A stretch of DNA of 64,000 nucleotides from Promethearchaeota archaeon (GTDB lineage Archaea > Asgardarchaeota > Lokiarchaeia > Sigyniarchaeales > SOKP01), in NCBI GenBank assembly GCA_019058445.1, contig JAHPZA010000006.1, positions 992,001 through 1,056,000 on the forward strand, given 5' to 3'. Under the pieces are notes generated by a model, which saw only the letters and a list, made by a program, of their open reading frames with translations, was not told where the DNA came from and ran no database searches. Made by a program: the position numbers and the translations under genes. Numbering within the stretch: position 1 is the first letter of the stretch; every line of letters begins with the position of its first letter. Of the stretch, positions 7,691-16,253 are shown one piece after another.

Positions 7691-9520
7691 TTAAAACTTA
7701 TATTGTCCATTTAGTATATTATCATAGATCTCCTTTGTCAAAGGTACGTATTCTGCCTTACTTGGCAACATAACATACAAGGGGTCATCTATCATCTCAA
7801 GATCAAAGCCCTCTTTTTTTAACTCCACTTTTTTAAATTTAAATGTCGGGGTGATCGAGAGATTCGATTTAAATCTTAGAAAAATTGGCATAGCATAGGG
7901 AGGGAGATTAATTCTAAAATGATTAGTCAATCCACTAAAATCAAAATGCTCAATTTTAATACTAATTACCACGGAAGCCATTCCTGCCCGTCCATCAGTA
8001 CCCGGTATTTTCACACCATACACAGATGACATTAAAACTGGTTCAAAAACGTTGAGGACTTCTTCTACCTCGGTCGTGGATACATTTTGCGCTTTCCAAC
8101 GAAAAGTATCTCCGATTCGATCAATAAATTGAACATGATTACACCCTTGATCTCTCATTAAATCACCAGTATTGAACCAAGCATCTCCTTCTTTGAAGAC
8201 ATTTCGCAAAATTTTTTTTTCCGTCGCGTTTTTATCAGTATAGCCAACAAAGACAAATTCATTTTGAAGGCCCCAAAGAAGCAAACCCGTATCACCAGGT
8301 TTAACTTTTTGCATGAATCCGTTCTCATTTCTTATTGGCTGTTCTTCATCGAAATCATATGTGACAACCGCATAAGGATTTGAACAATAACCAACAGTAC
8401 AGTCAAAGTTTAAATAATTGGCAAATACAGTACCTGTTTCTGATGCTCCATATATTTCTCCTATCTTATTGATGCCGAATCGTTTTTTAAAATCCATCCA
8501 TATATCCGGGCGGAGACCATTGCCCAAGATCGTTCTCACAGGATTATTTGCATCATCAGGATTGGAAGGCCGATTAATCAGATAACGGCACAATTCTCCG
8601 ACATAACTAAATGCAGATGCATTATATTTACGAATATCATCCCAGAAGTGAGAAACGCTAAATTTACTTCGTATAGCCGTAGCTGCACCGACTCCAAAAG
8701 CTGCTGCCCAAGCTACGCATAATCCGGTAGTATGATATAAAGGAAGTGCAATATACATAGTATCTTCGGGTGTTAATTCCCCCAATAACAGACCAAATAA
8801 ATAATGACTGCCTACCATACGTAAATGGATTAATATTGAAGCTTTCGGTAAACCTGTCGTACCTGATGTGAATACATAAGCAAGTGGATCGGAACCCTTA
8901 ATATTGGAGGTCATTGAAGGATTTTCAGCAGAAAAATCCTTGACAACTTGGCTAAGATCAAGAAATCCATCTGGAATGGGCATTCCACATTGATCTGGTA
9001 AAAAAAGGAGATTCTGCCCTTTTCGTAAATTAAGATCAGGTTTAACATTATTAAAGGCATTAAAACAGTCTTCATCAACTATAAAAACATTTGAGGGATT
9101 AAGTTTTAAAGAATGTGCCAGAGTTCTCTCACGCTGTTCGGTATTGATTAATGAACTAATTGCCCCAATTTTCCCAAGGGCACTAAGGGTGATTAAAAAT
9201 TCAGGGCGATTCATCATCATAAGCTCTACAACATCACCTTTTTTTAAGCCTAATGAAATAAAATAATTCGCATAGCGATTTACCCATTCATTAAATTCTT
9301 TAAAAGTTAACATATTATCTTCAAATTTGATGGCGACATCTTCGGCATATTTTTCTGCATTTCTTTCTACAACTTTTCCCCAGGAAACCTTGTTTTCGGC
9401 AACTATTTTGACGATCTCGGCAACTTCATGGGCATGTTTTTTATTAAATTCCCTCAATTTTTTTCTAAATACTTTCTTATCAATAAGATCCGGTTCTTTC
9501 TGGTTTGGTTCTTCTAACAT
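7691..9520 (-). CDS. long-chain acyl-CoA synthetase, FATP/VLACS
   Basis: YVFTSGTTGLPKAS, YGASE and DRIGDTFRWKAQNVST. Confidence 0.93.
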   Translation of the reverse strand: MLEEPNQKEPDLIDKKVFRKKLREFNKKHAHEVAEIVKIVAENKVSWGKVVERNAEKYAEDVAIKFEDNMLTFKEFNEWVNRYANYFISLGLKKGDVVELMMMNRPEFLITLSALGKIGAISSLINTEQRERTLAHSLKLNPSNVFIVDEDCFNAFNNVKPDLNLRKGQNLLFLPDQCGMPIPDGFLDLSQVVKDFSAENPSMTSNIKGSDPLAYVFTSGTTGLPKASILIHLRMVGSHYLFGLLLGELTPEDTMYIALPLYHTTGLCVAWAAAFGVGAATAIRSKFSVSHFWDDIRKYNASAFSYVGELCRYLINRPSNPDDANNPVRTILGNGLRPDIWMDFKKRFGINKIGEIYGASETGTVFANYLNFDCTVGYCSNPYAVVTYDFDEEQPIRNENGFMQKVKPGDTGLLLWGLQNEFVFVGYTDKNATEKKILRNVFKEGDAWFNTGDLMRDQGCNHVQFIDRIGDTFRWKAQNVSTTEVEEVLNVFEPVLMSSVYGVKIPGTDGRAGMASVVISIKIEHFDFSGLTNHFRINLPPYAMPIFLRFKSNLSITPTFKFKKVELKKEGFDLEMIDDPLYVMLPSKAEYVPLTKEIYDNILNGQYKF

Positions 9521-9690
9521 ATTAAATCCCCTTCTATTTTTTAGTTATTTAAAACAAAATAAATCATTCGATTTCTTAGAATAAAAGAAAATTTTGTTAG
9601 AAAATAAGTAAGAAAATTCCATTTATAAATCTTACATTCATGTTAAAATTCGAATCCAAAATTTTTCAAGAAATTATCTTAAAATGGAGT

Positions 9691-9753
9691 AAATTTGTTC
9701 TAAATAAAATAATGAGAATAAACAAAGTTATAATCTGATTATTTTGTTATGTC
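9691..9753 (-). repeat. degenerate copy of adk 3' end plus terminator
   Basis: aaatttgttctaaataaaataatgagaataaacaaagttataatctgattattttgttatgtc aligns with 14461-14505, 13437-13484 and 15551-15611. Confidence 0.65.
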
Positions 9754-9765
9754 ATTTTTTATTTT

Positions 9766-10380
9766 TCATTCTTGCCCTTGAATAATGAATATGAGCAACC
9801 TCGTTAAAAATTCAATTAATTCATCTTCCGTTTCAAATATAGGCATGATAAACAGATGTCGATGTATTATTGCTTCAAGAAAGGAAAAGAGAAGCATTGA
9901 TTTCTTTAGTATTTTTTCTTGAGGAATATTTTTAAAAAAGTCTAATTTGTGTAATTTAATAACTGAACCTTCCATCATTTCCCTAACTATCTTCTCTTGA
10001 TTGCTAAAAAGTTCTTTATTTGACATCCTAGCTTGATCAAAAGCTTTATATAGTTCAAGATTTTCTCTGTGAGAATTTAAATGGTTTTTTACAATTATTT
10101 TGAATAGCTTAATGGGATTATCTTCCTCAATTTCAGCTAACTGATTGAGATCTAAGATTTTATCGATTGTAAAGTTATAGAATACACTTGCTATTGAGGG
10201 CATTCCTTTAGGAAAATAACGATATATTGTTCCAACACTTATTTGAGCTTTTTTAGCTATATGTCTCGTGCTTACATTGCTATATCCGTATTTATTAATA
10301 AGATCAATGAAAGTTTGGAAAATTCGTTTAATTTTCTCCTCCTTATTTCTAAGAGGTTTCTTCTTTTTTTCTAACATCAA
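9766..10380 (-). CDS. TetR/AcrR family transcriptional regulator
   Basis: N-terminal HTH: GYSNVSTRHIAKKAQISVGTIYRYF. Confidence 0.93.
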   Translation of the reverse strand: MMLEKKKKPLRNKEEKIKRIFQTFIDLINKYGYSNVSTRHIAKKAQISVGTIYRYFPKGMPSIASVFYNFTIDKILDLNQLAEIEEDNPIKLFKIIVKNHLNSHRENLELYKAFDQARMSNKELFSNQEKIVREMMEGSVIKLHKLDFFKNIPQEKILKKSMLLFSFLEAIIHRHLFIMPIFETEDELIEFLTRLLIFIIQGQE

Positions 10381-10389
10381 TTATATATA

Positions 10390-10430
10390 ATGAACAAAGT
10401 TCATAAACTTTTTATATGAACAAAGTTCAT
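10390..10430. promoter_or_regulatory. two identical palindromic operators ATGAAC-AAA-GTTCAT (10390-10404, 10416-10430)
   Basis: Perfect repeats in the 77-bp divergent intergenic region between TetR and a membrane protein gene, overlapping TATA-like elements. Confidence 0.8.
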
Positions 10431-10457
10431 TAACTGTTATAGTCTAAAAATGAAAAA

Positions 10458-10913
10458 GTGTTGAAAAAGAAAAGTATGATTCTCCAACCTCCTATAAAAG
10501 AAAACCCATTGGGACTTCTAGCTGTGTTTTCTTTCATGTTATTCCTTGTAAGCATTACTACAGGATTCATATTATGGTTAATGACTAAGAAAAAGTTTGC
10601 AAAATGGTATACAGATCATAATATTAAAAAAAAAACCATCCTAAAGCTACATTGTTATGCATCTTATATTGCAGTAATTCTCGGTATCTTACATGGAATT
10701 GTAGAATATCAAGAATGCGAAACTTTATGGAGTATTAAATGGATTGCGGTTTATATAATGGGTGTCCTATGTTTTACTGGGGCGTTATTTCCTAAATTAA
10801 GTGAAATTTTACCTAATATAAGCAGGAAAAGAAAGATGACCGTATTGAGAATAATTCATTTTAGTTTACAAATTATAGTATTGGTTATTATAATTGACTT
10901 TTTATGGTTATAA
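10458..10913 (+). CDS. 4-TM membrane protein with His residues in TM helices (cytochrome b/DUF4405-like)
   Basis: Four hydrophobic segments; LH...LHG and IIH histidines. Confidence 0.6.
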   Translation: MLKKKSMILQPPIKENPLGLLAVFSFMLFLVSITTGFILWLMTKKKFAKWYTDHNIKKKTILKLHCYASYIAVILGILHGIVEYQECETLWSIKWIAVYIMGVLCFTGALFPKLSEILPNISRKRKMTVLRIIHFSLQIIVLVIIIDFLWL

Positions 10914-10945
10914 TGAGATATAAAATGGTTATAATGGGATATAAA
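10904..10945 (+). repeat. 21-bp tandem repeat x2 (atggttataatgrgatataaa)
   Basis: Units 10904-10924 and 10925-10945 differ by one base; they share the GGTTATAAT core with the adk-end repeat. Confidence 0.8.
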
Positions 10946-10948
10946 ATC

Positions 10949-10990
10949 AAAAAAAGAGAAAAAAGAAGGTTATAATCCGATTATTTTTTT
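10949..10990 (-). repeat. 42-bp direct repeat (adk 3' end plus terminator copy)
   Basis: Identical to 13437-13478. Confidence 0.9.
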
Positions 10991-10996
10991 AAAGTG

Positions 10997-11635
10997 CTAG
11001 TTTGTTTTAAGCAATAACCATTGCCTCTTAAAAAAGAGAGCCAAAACTAATATTGATCCCGAAGCCGTAATCATCCATGGTGAAGCTATAAGGAGTAAAG
11101 CAATGGAGAAAGTAGGGTAGAAATACACCAGAGAAATTATGGGGGTCATTAATGCATGAGCTAAAAAAAATCTTCTAACCCACCTTTCCATTCCCTGCTT
11201 GGCAAACACAGGAATTGCAAATAAACTCGCTAAACCCATGAATATATACCCCAATGCGTCAACATCCCAGAAAAGTGAATGTGGTGTTTGATCTAGAACT
11301 TTAATCTCATCATAATTACCACTTAGAATCATAGGGATAACAGTTGCCATTTGAACAACATAGTTCAGAATAACATAAGTTGCATATATAGCGGAAAAAA
11401 GAACAGCTGCATGAGCCCAAATCATCTTATCTTCGGGTGCTGAATGATAAAGCGCAAGCATAGCAAGTATAAAAGGTACAGGAATTCCAAGTGAAAATCC
11501 ATAAATTAGAATCGCATCTAAAGGAAATTTAATAGAACCTAGAAGTTGCAGAATCTGTGCTATATCAAACCCCACACTTGCTATAAAAGCCATAAGTGCC
11601 GACCAATAACCAATCTTATAAATATTTTCATCCAT
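10997..11635 (-). CDS. multi-pass membrane protein, unknown function
   Basis: About 6 hydrophobic helices. Confidence 0.75.
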   Translation of the reverse strand: MDENIYKIGYWSALMAFIASVGFDIAQILQLLGSIKFPLDAILIYGFSLGIPVPFILAMLALYHSAPEDKMIWAHAAVLFSAIYATYVILNYVVQMATVIPMILSGNYDEIKVLDQTPHSLFWDVDALGYIFMGLASLFAIPVFAKQGMERWVRRFFLAHALMTPIISLVYFYPTFSIALLLIASPWMITASGSILVLALFFKRQWLLLKTN

Positions 11636-11876
11636 ATTTTATTTATTTTAGCTTGGTTTTTTTTATTGTATTTCATCCAATTTTTTTAAAAAATTCTTGG
11701 ACAAAATTTAATAGAGACATATTATATTTAAACCTTTTGTTTTTTATCTAATAAATAGCATTTCTTGTTGGATATTATCTAGTAAAAAAGATCTTTCATT
11801 AGAATATATATAGATAATCAGAGATTTATTAAATATTATACAAAAAATTTAAATCTTTAAAAAGTATTATTTAATT

Positions 11877-12326
11877 ATGGACGATTTAGATCATCAAATT
11901 CTTGAGAAATTACAGGAAAACGATAAATTATCATACAAAAAAATTGGTAAAGCTTTAAAAAAACCAGCAAGCACCATCCATTTTAGAGTTAAAAAGATGA
12001 TTGATGAAAAAATAATTATTAAATTTAGTGCAATCGTAGATATGGAAAAATTAGGTTATAATACAGTAGGATGGCTTGGATTGACAATAGATCCTTTGAT
12101 GAGAGATGAAATTATTAAAAAACTTGCCTCGTATAAATTAATAAAAATGATTTCTTCTACTACAGGAGATTATAATTTAATTCTACATATACTTGCTGAA
12201 AATGAGAAAAAATTATGGAGTTTTATTAGAGACAATATCCAAATAATCGAAGGGGTTCATGATGTTCATGTAAGTTCCTCTTTAAAAATATATAAATGGG
12301 AAACTGCTTATTTTTTAAAATTATAA
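11877..12326 (+). CDS. Lrp/AsnC family regulator
   Basis: MDDLDHQILEKLQEN HTH; TTGDYNL ligand-binding domain. Confidence 0.93.
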   Translation: MDDLDHQILEKLQENDKLSYKKIGKALKKPASTIHFRVKKMIDEKIIIKFSAIVDMEKLGYNTVGWLGLTIDPLMRDEIIKKLASYKLIKMISSTTGDYNLILHILAENEKKLWSFIRDNIQIIEGVHDVHVSSSLKIYKWETAYFLKL

Positions 12327-12332
12327 AAATTT

Positions 12333-13151
12333 CTAAAATAATTCATCAAGGCTGAATCCACTTTCTAATAATTTTCCAAGTCGGGAAATAAACCTCGTTG
12401 CAGGAGCACCATCAACAATATCGTGATTTAATAAAACAGTCATAGTCAAGTATTCCCGAATTTCAATCCGATCATTAATGACTCCTGGTTTTTTGTTAAT
12501 TCCTCCTATCCCAAACGCTAATGGATGAGCCGTAGTCGGAATAGGCCATCCAAATAGATTACCGAACATTCCAACAGCAGTCACAACGATAGTTCCCATA
12601 AGCTGTTTGACTTTAATGGGGTTTTTAAGTGTATGTTTTAATAGAAATCTTCTAATAAATTTTGGCAAAGATACATAAAGATTCATCTTTTTATCAAGAT
12701 TACCACTACCTAATACAGCAGCACGATTTACTTTTTCAGATTGAGCAGCTCTTATTTCATCATGAATCTCCTTAATACTTTTTCCATTTGTTTTTCTAAT
12801 CAAAAGAGGTAAGGGTACTTTAATTCCATTAACATCTCTTTCAACTATCGTTGAAATATCAACATCTTCAAATCTAATTATTCTTTTACTTCCCTTCATT
12901 ATAGAATGGACCTCTTTATGTTCACTTGCAGCTTGTCCTATACATTTCAAAAGCCATGCTGTAAAAGATATTTTAACACCAGTATCTTTTTCATATTTCC
13001 GAATAAATTCTCGACCTCTCGTAACATCAACTTCAATTAATCCTTTTACATAATGAACTTTATCTCCCTGTGCAAGAAAATCAAGAGTAGGAATTCTTGC
13101 TTTTGGAAACTTTATAACTTCATAAGATCCAACATTTAGTTCTTTTTTCAC
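12333..13151 (-). CDS. 2-oxoacid dehydrogenase E2 catalytic-domain-only protein
   Basis: NHDIVDGAPATRF (HxxxDG); no lipoyl domain. Confidence 0.88.
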   Translation of the reverse strand: MKKELNVGSYEVIKFPKARIPTLDFLAQGDKVHYVKGLIEVDVTRGREFIRKYEKDTGVKISFTAWLLKCIGQAASEHKEVHSIMKGSKRIIRFEDVDISTIVERDVNGIKVPLPLLIRKTNGKSIKEIHDEIRAAQSEKVNRAAVLGSGNLDKKMNLYVSLPKFIRRFLLKHTLKNPIKVKQLMGTIVVTAVGMFGNLFGWPIPTTAHPLAFGIGGINKKPGVINDRIEIREYLTMTVLLNHDIVDGAPATRFISRLGKLLESGFSLDELF

Positions 13152-13436
13152 TCTGTATTAACATCTCTTCTTTTTTAAGGAAAATATAATAATAGATTTC
13201 TAGAGCTTTAATTATTCTCTATAAAAGGAATAATACAATTTAGATCTATTTAAATTGGAAATAGTTAAAAAAAATTTAAATACATTATTAATAAATCTTA
13301 ATTTTATATTTGTAAAAGTTGGATTAAGGAATCTGGTTCCCTTTAACTCCATTATTTATTTGCAAATTCAGAGTATTCTCAAAGGTGTGTAAAGAAAAAA
13401 AAAATTTCGGTGCATTAATCATTTCTAAATATCTTA

Positions 13437-13532
13437 AAAAAAAGAGAAAAAAGAAGGTTATAATCCGATTATTTTTTTGATGTCGTCTTCGGTTAAGGCA
13501 AGCGTGTTTTCCGCATCGACCTTTTTCAGCAA
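13437..13532 (-). repeat. displaced adk 3' end (25 codons incl. stop) plus T-tract terminator
   Basis: 13458-13532 encodes LLKKVDAENTLALTEDDIKKIIGL*; 67/75 nt identical to adk 15585-15659. Confidence 0.95.
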
Positions 13533-13550
13533 TTTTTTCTTTTTAGAAAT

Positions 13551-14294
13551 TCATATCATCTTGGGAATTTTAAGCTTTTGTGTCAGTGTTTTAAGACCTT
13601 CTTCTTGCTGAACGCCAAAGGAATTAAGTGCCATAGCATACATATTGTAGAATCCCACAGTGAAGACCAGATCTATAAGCTGGTCTGTATTATACCGCTC
13701 AGCTAGAGAATTCCAAGTCTCATCTGTAATAAAGGTGTCTAAATAGAGTTCGTCCACCGCACGGAGCAATGTGGCATTAAAAGTATCCCACTCCTCGGCG
13801 TCTGGTCCTTCCATAATACGGTTGATTTCATTATCGGAGAGGTGCCCACCCGCCTTTGCACTAAGAGTATGATGCCCCCATTCATATTTCGAATAGCACA
13901 GCCATCCGATGCGAAGAATAAGAAGCTCTCTATCCCGGTCGGGGAGTGACGAAGAAAGTAAATGATGTTTGAGCGTCGCAAGTCGTACATATAAATCTCT
14001 ATTATTTGCCATTGTCGAATCATGATTGAAGATTGGAAAATACTTCGGAGCTTCGTCTATACTTCCTCCTAAAAACGGAATTAGTGGTTTATACGCTTCA
14101 ATGCCCCTTTGAACTGCTTTGTCAAATTCTGATTTATCCATCGCTGATTTTAGAACTTCCGTCGCCTTTACTCTTATTTTAATATATTCATCTTTTTCCA
14201 TGAGAGGGATTCTGGGCTTGGAAAGCCGTACATGTTTACGTGGCTCTATTTTTCTTATCACTTCTCCTTCTTGATTACTCATTACATATTTCAC
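13551..14294 (-). CDS. CMD/AhpD-like family protein
   Basis: LPDRDRELLILRIGWLCYSKYEWGHH; shares upstream and downstream DNA with 6823..7554. Confidence 0.85.
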   Translation of the reverse strand: MKYVMSNQEGEVIRKIEPRKHVRLSKPRIPLMEKDEYIKIRVKATEVLKSAMDKSEFDKAVQRGIEAYKPLIPFLGGSIDEAPKYFPIFNHDSTMANNRDLYVRLATLKHHLLSSSLPDRDRELLILRIGWLCYSKYEWGHHTLSAKAGGHLSDNEINRIMEGPDAEEWDTFNATLLRAVDELYLDTFITDETWNSLAERYNTDQLIDLVFTVGFYNMYAMALNSFGVQQEEGLKTLTQKLKIPKMI

Positions 14295-14460
14295 CCTTTA
14301 ATTTTGCTTTTTTATTATTTTAATTGTTGATTTTTCTAATTTATACAATATTGTGAAAAAATTTCGTTATACGAAATAGGTTTATTTTATTAATAAAATT
14401 TACATTTCTGTAAATTTGCTTATTCAAAATTATTCAAAAATTTTTCTTAAAATTGATGAA

Positions 14461-14505
14461 ATTTGCTCGAAATAAAAAAAAGAGAATAAAGAAGGTTATA
14501 ATCCG
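14461..14505 (-). repeat. copy of adk stop codon/terminator region
   Basis: tttgctcgaaataaaaaaaagagaataaagaaggttataatccg matches 15551-15590 and 13437-13466. Confidence 0.8.
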
Positions 14506-14542
14506 TCTAACCTGTTTTTTATGGAATAACTTTAAATCACAA

Positions 14543-15517
14543 TTAAGTTGTTAAATGATTAATCTTATCAATTGCATTTTTTTTAATTTTTTTTATAATG
14601 CAATTTTTTAAAGTAATAGTACCCGCTAATTTTTTAAAAGTTTTGAGGATCTGAATATCCGAATTTTCAATGATAACATCTTTAGATGCTCCGAATTTAA
14701 GAATATTTGTGCTAATACTCTTCATTTTTATATCTGAGCAAAATTTTAAATTGATATATTCCGAAAAACTACAATTTTCGAAGATTATGTGTTGAGAATC
14801 TATTAATTTAACATATTTTAATTTAAAATTTTTAAAAATTAGAAAATGTCTATTCTTAATAATTTTTCGTAGGTCAAACTCTTGGTTATTTTGATCAAAA
14901 TAATCAAAAATTGCCGGATCTGCTTTAGTTCCATTTCCCTTACATATTAATTCTGTTAATAAACCGAGACCTCCTACAGAAAATGTTTTATAATTCTCTA
15001 ATAGTGGTTTTTGGATGATTTTGCTATCGTATTCATACCGCCTATGGACTTGATTATTTTCAAATATATTTCCTCTACTTAAATGAAGTATATCCCAAAA
15101 GATGTTCCAAATTTCACAATTTTTGAAAACATTATTAAAGCATTTGTATAATTGAAACCACTCTTGGGATCTTGAATCTTCAAAAGAACAATTATGGCAA
15201 ACAATGAACAACACTGAATCACACCTAATTTTTTGAATTTTTATATAAGAACAATAACAAAGGTTTAAAATTTCAAATGTGGTATTTTCGATTGTAATAT
15301 TTTTTGAATATAATAAATTGACATACTTAAGGGTACAATCTTTTATTAGAATATATAAATCTGATTCCATAATATCAAAATCAGTAGGCAATCTCAAGAA
15401 CGAGTCAATAACTAAAGGATCTTCTTTTGATCCACTCCCCTTACAATTTATTTCGAATTCTTCAATTTTCGCAAAATTTCTCCATCTACTATAATTTCTT
15501 CTTAAAGTAAGTTTCAT
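14543..15517 (-). CDS. right-handed parallel beta-helix repeat protein
   Basis: Two GxGxKxDPxI caps followed by IxIxNCxF repeats. Start re-assigned to MKLTLRR (15517), because the longer ORF overlaps the adk terminator. Confidence 0.7.
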   Translation of the reverse strand: MKLTLRRNYSRWRNFAKIEEFEINCKGSGSKEDPLVIDSFLRLPTDFDIMESDLYILIKDCTLKYVNLLYSKNITIENTTFEILNLCYCSYIKIQKIRCDSVLFIVCHNCSFEDSRSQEWFQLYKCFNNVFKNCEIWNIFWDILHLSRGNIFENNQVHRRYEYDSKIIQKPLLENYKTFSVGGLGLLTELICKGNGTKADPAIFDYFDQNNQEFDLRKIIKNRHFLIFKNFKLKYVKLIDSQHIIFENCSFSEYINLKFCSDIKMKSISTNILKFGASKDVIIENSDIQILKTFKKLAGTITLKNCIIKKIKKNAIDKINHLTT

Positions 15518-15584
15518 CTTACATCCATAATATATTTCAATATAAACTTCTTTGCTCCAAATAGAAAAAAAAAGAAAAAAAAGG

Positions 15585-16253
15585 TTATATTCCAATTATT
15601 TTTTTGATGTCGTCTTCGGTTAGTGCAAGCGTGTTTTCCGCGTCGACTTTTTTCACTAATCCTTTTTTTTCATAGTATTCGATTACGGGTTTGGCATTTT
15701 TTTCATAGGTGTCTAACCGGTTTTTAAGGGTTTCTTCGGTGTCATCGCTTCTCTGAATAAACTCTATTTCAGCTCCACATTTATCGCACTTCCATTTGTT
15801 CTCCCCTATTTGGACTTTAGGCTGGAGTGTGTATTTGTTGTAAATCTCGCCGCACTCAGGGCAGCCGAACCTTCCGAGGATCCTTTTTGTGATTATATCT
15901 CTGCCAATTTCCAGCAAGAGCAATATATCTACTTCAGATATTGTTGATAATGCTTCACTTTGCGCTAAGGTTCTTGGAAAACCATCTAGCAAAAATCCAT
16001 GCTGCTTAACATCATCCTGATTTAACCTATCCCGCACCATATCAATCACTACATCATCCGGAACGAGTTCGCCTTTATCCATGTACCCTTTAGCTTTTAG
16101 ACCTAAAGGTGTTTGATTCTTTAAATTTTCGCGAAAAATATCGCCAGTGCTTATATGAGCAATGTTTGGTAATACTCGTTTGATTTGCCCCGAAAAGGTC
16201 CCTTTACCCGCGCCAGGGGGGCCAAATAATATTAATTTTTTCATATCTATCAT
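15585..16253 (-). CDS. adk: adenylate kinase, bacterial/eukaryotic type with Zn-binding LID
   Basis: GPPGAGKGT, HISTGDIFR, LLDGFPRT, CPECG...CDKCG, QRSDD. Confidence 0.96.
   Translation of the reverse strand: MIDMKKLILFGPPGAGKGTFSGQIKRVLPNIAHISTGDIFRENLKNQTPLGLKAKGYMDKGELVPDDVVIDMVRDRLNQDDVKQHGFLLDGFPRTLAQSEALSTISEVDILLLLEIGRDIITKRILGRFGCPECGEIYNKYTLQPKVQIGENKWKCDKCGAEIEFIQRSDDTEETLKNRLDTYEKNAKPVIEYYEKKGLVKKVDAENTLALTEDDIKKIIGI

Follow-up and report, generated by a model that had tools for sequence, protein, structure and literature searches.

The stretch of DNA analyzed here, hereafter the window, is 64,000 nucleotides (nt) from an uncultured Promethearchaeota (Asgard) archaeon whose metagenome-assembled genome comprises 4.6 Mb in 10 contigs. 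The window lies on a 1.28-Mb contig (C6) and holds an array of accessory genes anchored on adk, the gene for adenylate kinase. This gene is intact (15585-16253, minus strand; Pfam ADK, 1.4e-48); gene callers place its start 9 nt later, which gives 219 amino acids (aa), and 219-aa homologues are 90-93% identical. Behind adk is a direct repeat, R, with a 36-nt core that consists of the last four adk codons, the stop codon and a T-rich stretch of ~22 nt (TAATCGGATTATAACCTTCTTTTTTCTCTTTTTTTT). The core is present in five direct copies in the window, R0 to R4, which start at 15563, 14474, 13436, 10948, and 9706 and separate blocks of accessory genes of 1.0-2.5 kb. A 22-mer derived from the core, with up to 3 mismatches allowed, had 4 sites in the window versus 0.00 expected from 100 shuffles. 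A previous sequence-only reading of this DNA had proposed that the adk tail recurs four times downstream, and the repeat search, 22-mer search, and core scan all confirmed this.

The five copies, all on the minus strand, differ in what surrounds the core. R0 (15551-15670) is the functional adk tail, with the core at 15563-15598 and 12 nt of shared downstream sequence. R1 (14384-14509) has the core at 14474-14509 without an adk arm, together with ~90 nt of shared downstream sequence, from terminator to promoter, before a CMD-family gene. R2 (13435-13543) combines the core (13436-13471) with an in-frame adk arm of 73-87 nt that is of the allele type of the related genomes G003 and G008, and its homology ends exactly where the T run ends. 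R3 (10948-10995) has the core at 10948-10983 and ~11 nt on the left, with neither flank adk-like or native. In R4 (9616-9753), the core is degenerate (9706-9741, 6 mismatches) and is followed by shared downstream sequence running into the first FATP gene. R2 aligns with R0 over 109 nt at 85% identity. The coding ends of R0 and R2 differ at 8 of 75 nt, both are in frame, and the amino acid changes are V/L and I/L; R2 and R3 are identical over 42 nt. Both comparisons hold as the sequence-only reading had described them, the latter for copies that it placed at 13437 and 10949. R1 and R4 also have ~100 nt 3' of the core in common. Lacking both an adk arm and a native right arm, R3 is a junction between two inserted blocks.

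Aligning the copies of the window with those of relatives gave an anatomy of three parts, namely, a variable left arm of adk sequence, a constant core, and a right arm of ~100-130 nt. The right arm corresponds to the native sequence after adk, and a TATA-like motif ahead of the next gene marks its end. It is full in R1 and R4, cut at +12 in R0, and cut exactly at the end of the T run in R2 and R3. Across all loci, the adk coding sequence kept per copy ranges from 0 to >130 nt, and the right edge falls at the T run, at +12, at +30, or ~100 nt further. Every adk junction shares a core of 32-36 nt, and whole repeats range from 42-47 nt up to >300 nt. DNA folding of six copies, on either strand, revealed no hairpin or palindrome in R (z of -1.0 to +1.2 versus shuffles). 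When the repeat was compared with the whole 4.6-Mb genome by BLAST, the adk locus was the only place with copies. Because R is confined to this locus, the alternative that it is a generic terminator scattered genome-wide was ruled out.

The blocks between the copies carry one to three genes each. Cassette 1 (14543-15517, minus strand) is a single 324-aa gene with no Pfam family and a GC content of 25%. Cassette 2 (13551-14294, minus strand; GC content of 41%) is the CMD-family gene, assigned by Pfam. Cassette 3 (10997-13151) contains three genes: a gene with a 2-oxoacid dehydrogenase acyltransferase domain (12333-13151, minus strand) and an Lrp/AsnC regulator (11877-12326, plus strand), both assigned by Pfam, and a 212-aa membrane protein with no Pfam family (10997-11635, minus strand). 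Cassette 4 (9766-10913) has two genes with Pfam assignments, a DUF4405 membrane protein (10458-10913, plus strand) and a TetR regulator (9766-10380, minus strand). Beyond R4 is the first gene for a FATP-type acyl-CoA ligase (AMP-binding, Pfam; 7691-9520, minus strand). The GC content of the cassette genes in the window spans 25% to 41%, versus 31% for the genome. The whole island in this genome measures ~24.5 kb from adk to aroD, with aroD beyond the window. Pfam thus bore out the gene contents given in the sequence-only reading for the FATP, TetR, DUF4405, Lrp/AsnC, acyltransferase, and CMD genes. Its beta-helix protein in cassette 1 did not fare as well, a right-handed beta-helix being only a weak lead from a language model.

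We then compared this site with the same site in other genomes. We gathered R-bearing contigs by searching relatives with the adk protein, by scanning metagenomes for the core, and by looking up close adk homologues. The metagenome-scan contigs were preselected by an exact 21-nt core match, and arguments from conservation are limited to contigs found via the adk protein. The core lies behind adk on ~19 related contigs, nine of which have 2-5 copies, with cassettes and order that differ. Among 121 genomes of the family, only four members of the host's genus have the repeat, and the own adk tail is not repeated in the more distant G005, G006, G009, G010, G011, G016, or G021-G023. Non-archaeal matches to the core in the genome and metagenome scans were rejected as chance matches.

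Reading outward from adk, with R marking each repeat copy, the window has the 324-aa gene, R, CMD, R, acyltransferase with Lrp and membrane protein, R, DUF4405 with TetR, R, and then FATP and onward. G003 has CMD, R, DUF1326, R, and a FATP tail fragment and onward, and G008 has CMD-like and FATP genes, R, and DUF362 with aroD. Locus L130 has two alpha/beta hydrolases, R, MFS, R, DUF1326 with CMD and isochorismatase, R, and FATP with GDPD and aroD. L141 begins with DUF1326, CMD, and isochorismatase followed by R, and so lacks two cassettes that L130 has. L072 has two CMD genes, R, old-yellow-enzyme, and R, and L063 has a hydrolase and FATP before R. In L074 and L127, FATP follows adk immediately. 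Cassette sets and orders differ among G003, G008, L130, L141, L072, L063, and L056; orthologues of the CMD gene of cassette 2 follow adk in G003 and L072. An empty site is seen in L138 and in the P0026 contig, where aroD lies 34 nt after adk, with a different tail and no core. In all, the blocks carry ~12 gene families, none of which is a recombinase. The locus behind adk is a strain-variable insertion hot spot, where each unit consists of 1-3 accessory genes and ends in a spare adk tail. Gene order after adk is thus not identical in relatives and content varies, and together with the empty adk-aroD site this upholds the earlier proposal that DNA entered here repeatedly. Because a FATP-type gene directly follows adk in several relatives, the FATP-type ligase of the window is older content of the island.

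Signs of decay were also seen in the islands. G003 keeps a 63-aa FATP tail fragment right after an R copy (L039:3874-4053), and the FATP gene of L133 is split by a frameshift (L133:5244-7072). Separately, L064:1-6733 has an old-yellow-enzyme cassette with an R copy amid Nmad2/Nmad3, BRCT, and DUF559-fragment genes, and adk is absent from the surrounding 2 kb. Compared to the old-yellow-enzyme copy of L072, the upstream homology of the L064 copy stops exactly in a T run.

The adk alleles at these junctions give some indication of where the DNA came from. Read in frame, the R2 arm matches the functional adk ends of relatives at 90-97% identity but the adk end of its own genome at only 85%; it carries the C-terminal allele found in G003 and G008 instead of the resident one. 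This would fit arrival from another lineage. An exchange is visible when L130 and L141 are compared: identity is 97-98% in the three-gene cassette and in the sequence upstream of adk, versus only 82.7% in adk plus R0, and L130 has its two extra cassettes. The near-identical block begins ~105 nt right of the core, inside the right arm and not in the core. From this pattern of identity, a segment with adk and two cassettes was swapped by homologous recombination in flanking sequence. As an observation in its own right, the comparison of L130:9348-14450 with L141:3020-4050 has an essential gene, adk, replaced along with neighboring cassettes. The mosaic adk of L062, considered as proof of 3'-end replacement, was only suggestive (p of 0.002 to 0.3 by pair) because the last 75 nt are conserved even versus genomes without R.

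A whole-genome scan for local direct repeats found the same scar at other loci of this genome. At C4:98730-103000 (L118:4730-8980), there are three repeats (79, ~40, and ~31 nt) of the 3' part of an intron-containing tRNA. This tRNA was missed by ARAGORN and Rfam and was identified from its acceptor, D, and T arms. The blocks of the tRNA array are 2.4, 0.85, and 0.83 kb and encode two HNH proteins, a 234-aa unknown protein, and a PNPOx-like protein, with no integrase. At C9:408980-410114 (L144:2481-3615), a P-type ATPase gene has its final 196 nt duplicated around a 0.74-kb insert that carries a gene for an 85-aa membrane protein. The site is single copy and empty in G003, G008, and G005, and a 74%-identical copy of the insert is found at an unrelated place in G003. 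The insertion is recent since 179 nt of the duplication are identical. At C2:88384-90101 (L145), copies of the final 163 nt of an enoyl-CoA hydratase gene bracket a 1.4-kb insert with a geranylgeranyl-reductase-like gene, and this locus is empty in G003 and G007. In both the ATPase and hydratase loci, the duplication ends at the stop codon. At C6:650747-653814 (L146), a gene for a 234-aa zinc-ribbon protein has a second copy of its tail (106 nt, 91.5% identity) 2.9 kb downstream, and another repeat pair of 35 identical nt has similar spacing; an empty site could not be shown in relatives for this locus. We saw no sequence in common between the ATPase, hydratase, tRNA, and zinc-ribbon targets and the adk core. 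Because the same scar occurs at unrelated genes, a single site-specific enzyme cannot account for all of these loci.

We also looked for enzymes that could move the cassettes. Pfam found no recombinase in the window region, in agreement with the sequence-only reading, and none among the open reading frames of ~30 cassettes on ~19 R-bearing contigs. The recombinase search of the genome, which that reading had called for, returned two PF00589 genes (XerA at C9:114213 and an integrase at C6:26666-27571) and no PF00239 (serine recombinase) gene. XerA scored 239 bits versus a model cutoff of 220 and lies ~1.2 kb from a 396-aa gene resembling the Orc1/Cdc6 initiator. The C6 integrase (301 aa, Xer-like) is on the same contig as the array, ~980 kb away. 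It is located amid small unknown genes beside a PCNA/primase cluster (C6:26181-33000, L107) and is probably part of an integrated element. Homologues of the C6 integrase are present in G003 and were not found in G008 or G007, both of which are incomplete genomes. A tie between this integrase and R was rejected, as there was no flanking repeat, tRNA, or core-like sequence near it or near its G003 homologues. More generally, no core-like site was found near the integrases of the genome, and two scans of viral contigs for an attP-like copy of the core gave nothing or chance coding matches only. The core also does not have the 11-6-11 layout of a Xer site; judged by eye, it has only an inner palindrome of 4-5 nt with a 5-nt spacer. 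A perfect 11-6-11 palindrome does occur at C6:972295-972322, ~35 kb from adk, and it was the sole strong one in a de novo scan of the genome. We dropped it as a candidate dif site (it is probably not dif), as it was absent from all 40 relatives checked.

To account for these data, we favor, at about an even chance, serial insertion with long target duplication by host recombination, followed by homologous exchange between lineages. No dedicated integrase would be involved. New DNA would enter at the end of adk through the recombination and repair machinery of the cell, a stretch of the target would be duplicated at each entry, and only events that leave adk whole would survive. Such selection for an intact adk would be why every repeat reaches the adk end while its start inside adk varies. 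The R copies could then act as homology for further pop-in, pop-out, and segment exchange between lineages, which would make the site self-reinforcing. The enzymology would be that of the host, presumably acting on circular intermediates. This reading is backed by the lack of a recombinase, the repeat length that is not fixed, the same architecture at unrelated genes, the exchange tract, and the lack of a hairpin in R. Direct duplications longer than 30 bp, variable and without a mobility gene, are what is expected of such insertions, and the duplications measured 106-196 nt at three other loci and 31-79 nt at the tRNA. A single-copy empty site in a related genome was likewise found at the adk, ATPase, and hydratase loci.

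Several points weigh against insertion with long target duplication. The repeats that bound cassette 1 share only ~46 nt at ~80% identity and are not mosaic, which makes them a poor substrate for homologous recombination unless they later diverged or were trimmed. The end of the T run is the exact starting point of at least four unrelated cassettes. A hand count in unbiased pseudo-copies gave 12/252 changed positions in the core versus 39/343 in the adk arms, so that the core is the better conserved of the two. Both the T-run starts and the conservation of the core would also fit a specific recognition site. In addition, an array of tRNA tails is the classic footprint of an integrase, and one site reused in many lineages is more typical of site-specific systems. 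No donor arrangement of a cassette came to light either.

The main rival, and a serious one even though we hold it only tentatively, is that the core is a true attachment site at which single-cassette circles are moved by a site-specific recombinase encoded elsewhere and acting in trans. Candidate enzymes are XerA and the mobile-element integrase (C6:26666-27571), and a helper virus or plasmid could also supply one; the system would resemble integron cassettes in integrase-less arrays or cis- or trans-mobilized islands. The core is in every junction of every array, and its edge over the arms in pseudo-copies and the unrelated cassettes that start right after the T run are what such an enzyme would leave. 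The same can be said of R3, where neither flank is native, as for two tandem elements, and of the cassette order that is shuffled between genomes, the short, divergent, nonmosaic repeats around cassette 1, and the homologues of the C6 integrase in R-bearing G003. However, there is no integrase or remnant of one in ~30 cassettes, the core has neither an inverted-repeat binding-site layout nor a fold, no attP was found on the viral contigs scanned, and nothing core-like is near the genome's integrases. The C6 integrase was not found in the (incomplete) G008 and G007 genomes. The extents of the repeats vary widely, the scar at unrelated genes would need several enzymes where the genome has two tyrosine recombinases, and the recent exchange seen in L130 and L141 had its crossover outside the core. 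We consider it unlikely, in turn, that the core belongs to an unrecognized, dedicated cassette-capture system of Asgard archaea. This would be a functional analogue of the integron with a nonhairpin site, single-gene circles, and a recombinase that is encoded elsewhere or is of an unknown family.

Each cassette could instead be the decayed remnant of a larger integrative element that once had its own integrase, by the accretion-then-deletion route of bacterial cis-mobilizable elements (CIMEs). This three-step route is documented in bacteria (PMC5704250), and deletions in the island do exist, as in the 63-aa FATP tail by an R copy in G003 and the frameshifted FATP gene of L133. We find this very doubtful, as no array holds an integrase fragment, the cassettes are uniformly 0.8-2.5 kb with intact genes, and the recent 0.74-kb insert in the ATPase locus is too small ever to have held an integrase. 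That the array is a misassembly stringing strain variants together at the repeat is scarcely credible: R2 and R3 do share 42 identical nt where k=31 contigs break, and only 21-45% of the words of the region occur in sister samples (runs X2-X4), which hints at strain variants, but adk-R0-cassette-R1-CMD is covered by independent k=31 contigs of the source sample, whose breaks all fall within that 42-nt repeat, an independent Logan contig is exactly cassette 3 from R2 to R3, all other junctions are crossed by the independent source-sample assembly, other repeat pairs share <31 identical nt, multicopy arrays occur in unrelated assemblies from other studies, and the contig is 1.28 Mb in a 10-contig genome.

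Taken together, the observation made in the sequence-only reading was confirmed, and its interpretation was partly supported. It had taken the orphan tails for displaced functional alleles of adk. The in-frame R2 arm and its 90-97% identity to the ends of relatives agree with functional alleles, but displacement of resident ends is not needed, as the orphan tails may have traveled in with cassettes from other lineages. It had also left the choice between a recombinase in trans and entry by homology, and the evidence leans to homology and host recombination, given the scar at unrelated genes and the exchange tract at adk. Its term "integron-like" can be kept only as an analogy, since there is no attC-type fold and no IntI, and the cassette genes are in both orientations.

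To our knowledge, few Asgard mobile elements are known, and gene gain in Asgard archaea bears on ideas of how the ancestors of eukaryotes built mixed gene sets. Here, accessory metabolic and regulatory genes are stacked, shuffled, and lost at one housekeeping gene in many lineages with no visible integrase. If host recombination is responsible, duplicated gene or tRNA tails would not be proof of integrases in these genomes, and insertion with long target duplication would take in ordinary archaeal genes as well as bacterial restriction-modification genes, and arrays as well as single events. Should the core instead be used by an enzyme acting in trans, the cassette system would be a new one. 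In both cases, the locus offers a compact natural test bed with many independent events, known empty sites, and short, defined junctions.

Of the known systems, Xer-dependent modules include the integrative mobile elements exploiting Xer (IMEX) and the pdif modules of Acinetobacter plasmids. As in these, small cassettes without a recombinase of their own, like those behind adk, could use a housekeeping recombinase of the host. However, the R core, judged by eye, is without the 11-6-11 layout. Aloposons, which are giant-protein elements at tRNAs, were set aside as unrelated. Integrase-less clusters of attC sites (CALINs) have been reported in Asgard archaea (PMC9668308). Like integrons and CALINs, the adk array has small, strain-variable, mostly one-gene cassettes at a recurring site, often with no integrase nearby. 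Unlike them, its site is the tail of a housekeeping gene, with no attC hairpin and no IntI or attI, its genes are in both orientations, and many of its cassettes have promoter-like sequence.

Accretion at 3' ends is known from integrative and conjugative elements, integrative and mobilizable elements, and CIMEs (PMC5704250), from tycheposon islands at tRNA genes (bioRxiv 10.1101/2020.12.28.424599), and from tandem ssrA islands in Dehalococcoides (PMC3146451). As in these systems, the units at adk are in tandem, strain variable, and split by partial direct copies of the 3' part of a target that stays intact, with newer units pushing older ones outward. The known systems have identifiable site-specific integrases in at least some units, and those units are several kilobases or larger, whereas the adk units are 0.8-2.5 kb and no matching integrase was seen in any. 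The outcome is like that of an integron or an accreted island, but the array lacks the features that define either, with no attC fold, no IntI, and no integrase in any unit.

The closest likeness is to insertion with long target duplication, a term of Nobusato et al. 2000 as cited in Furuta et al. 2010 (PMC2853133). The latter describes insertions of bacterial restriction-modification genes with long, variable target duplication and no mobility gene, and it gives the mechanism as unknown (PMC2853133). In common with those cases, the array has direct duplications of tens to hundreds of base pairs and of variable length, often over the 3' end of a gene, with no mobility gene, a genome-unique repeat, and an empty site in a relative. 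Published cases each involve one insertion of restriction-modification genes in a bacterium, and no archaeal case was retained in the repeat-flank screen of that survey (PMC2853133). In contrast, the adk array carries metabolic and regulatory cargo, is serial with up to four junctions per genome, and recurs across lineages of an Asgard host. The array answers to the description of insertion with long target duplication, and it departs from the published cases in that it is serial, recurs across lineages, carries metabolic and regulatory cargo, and is archaeal.

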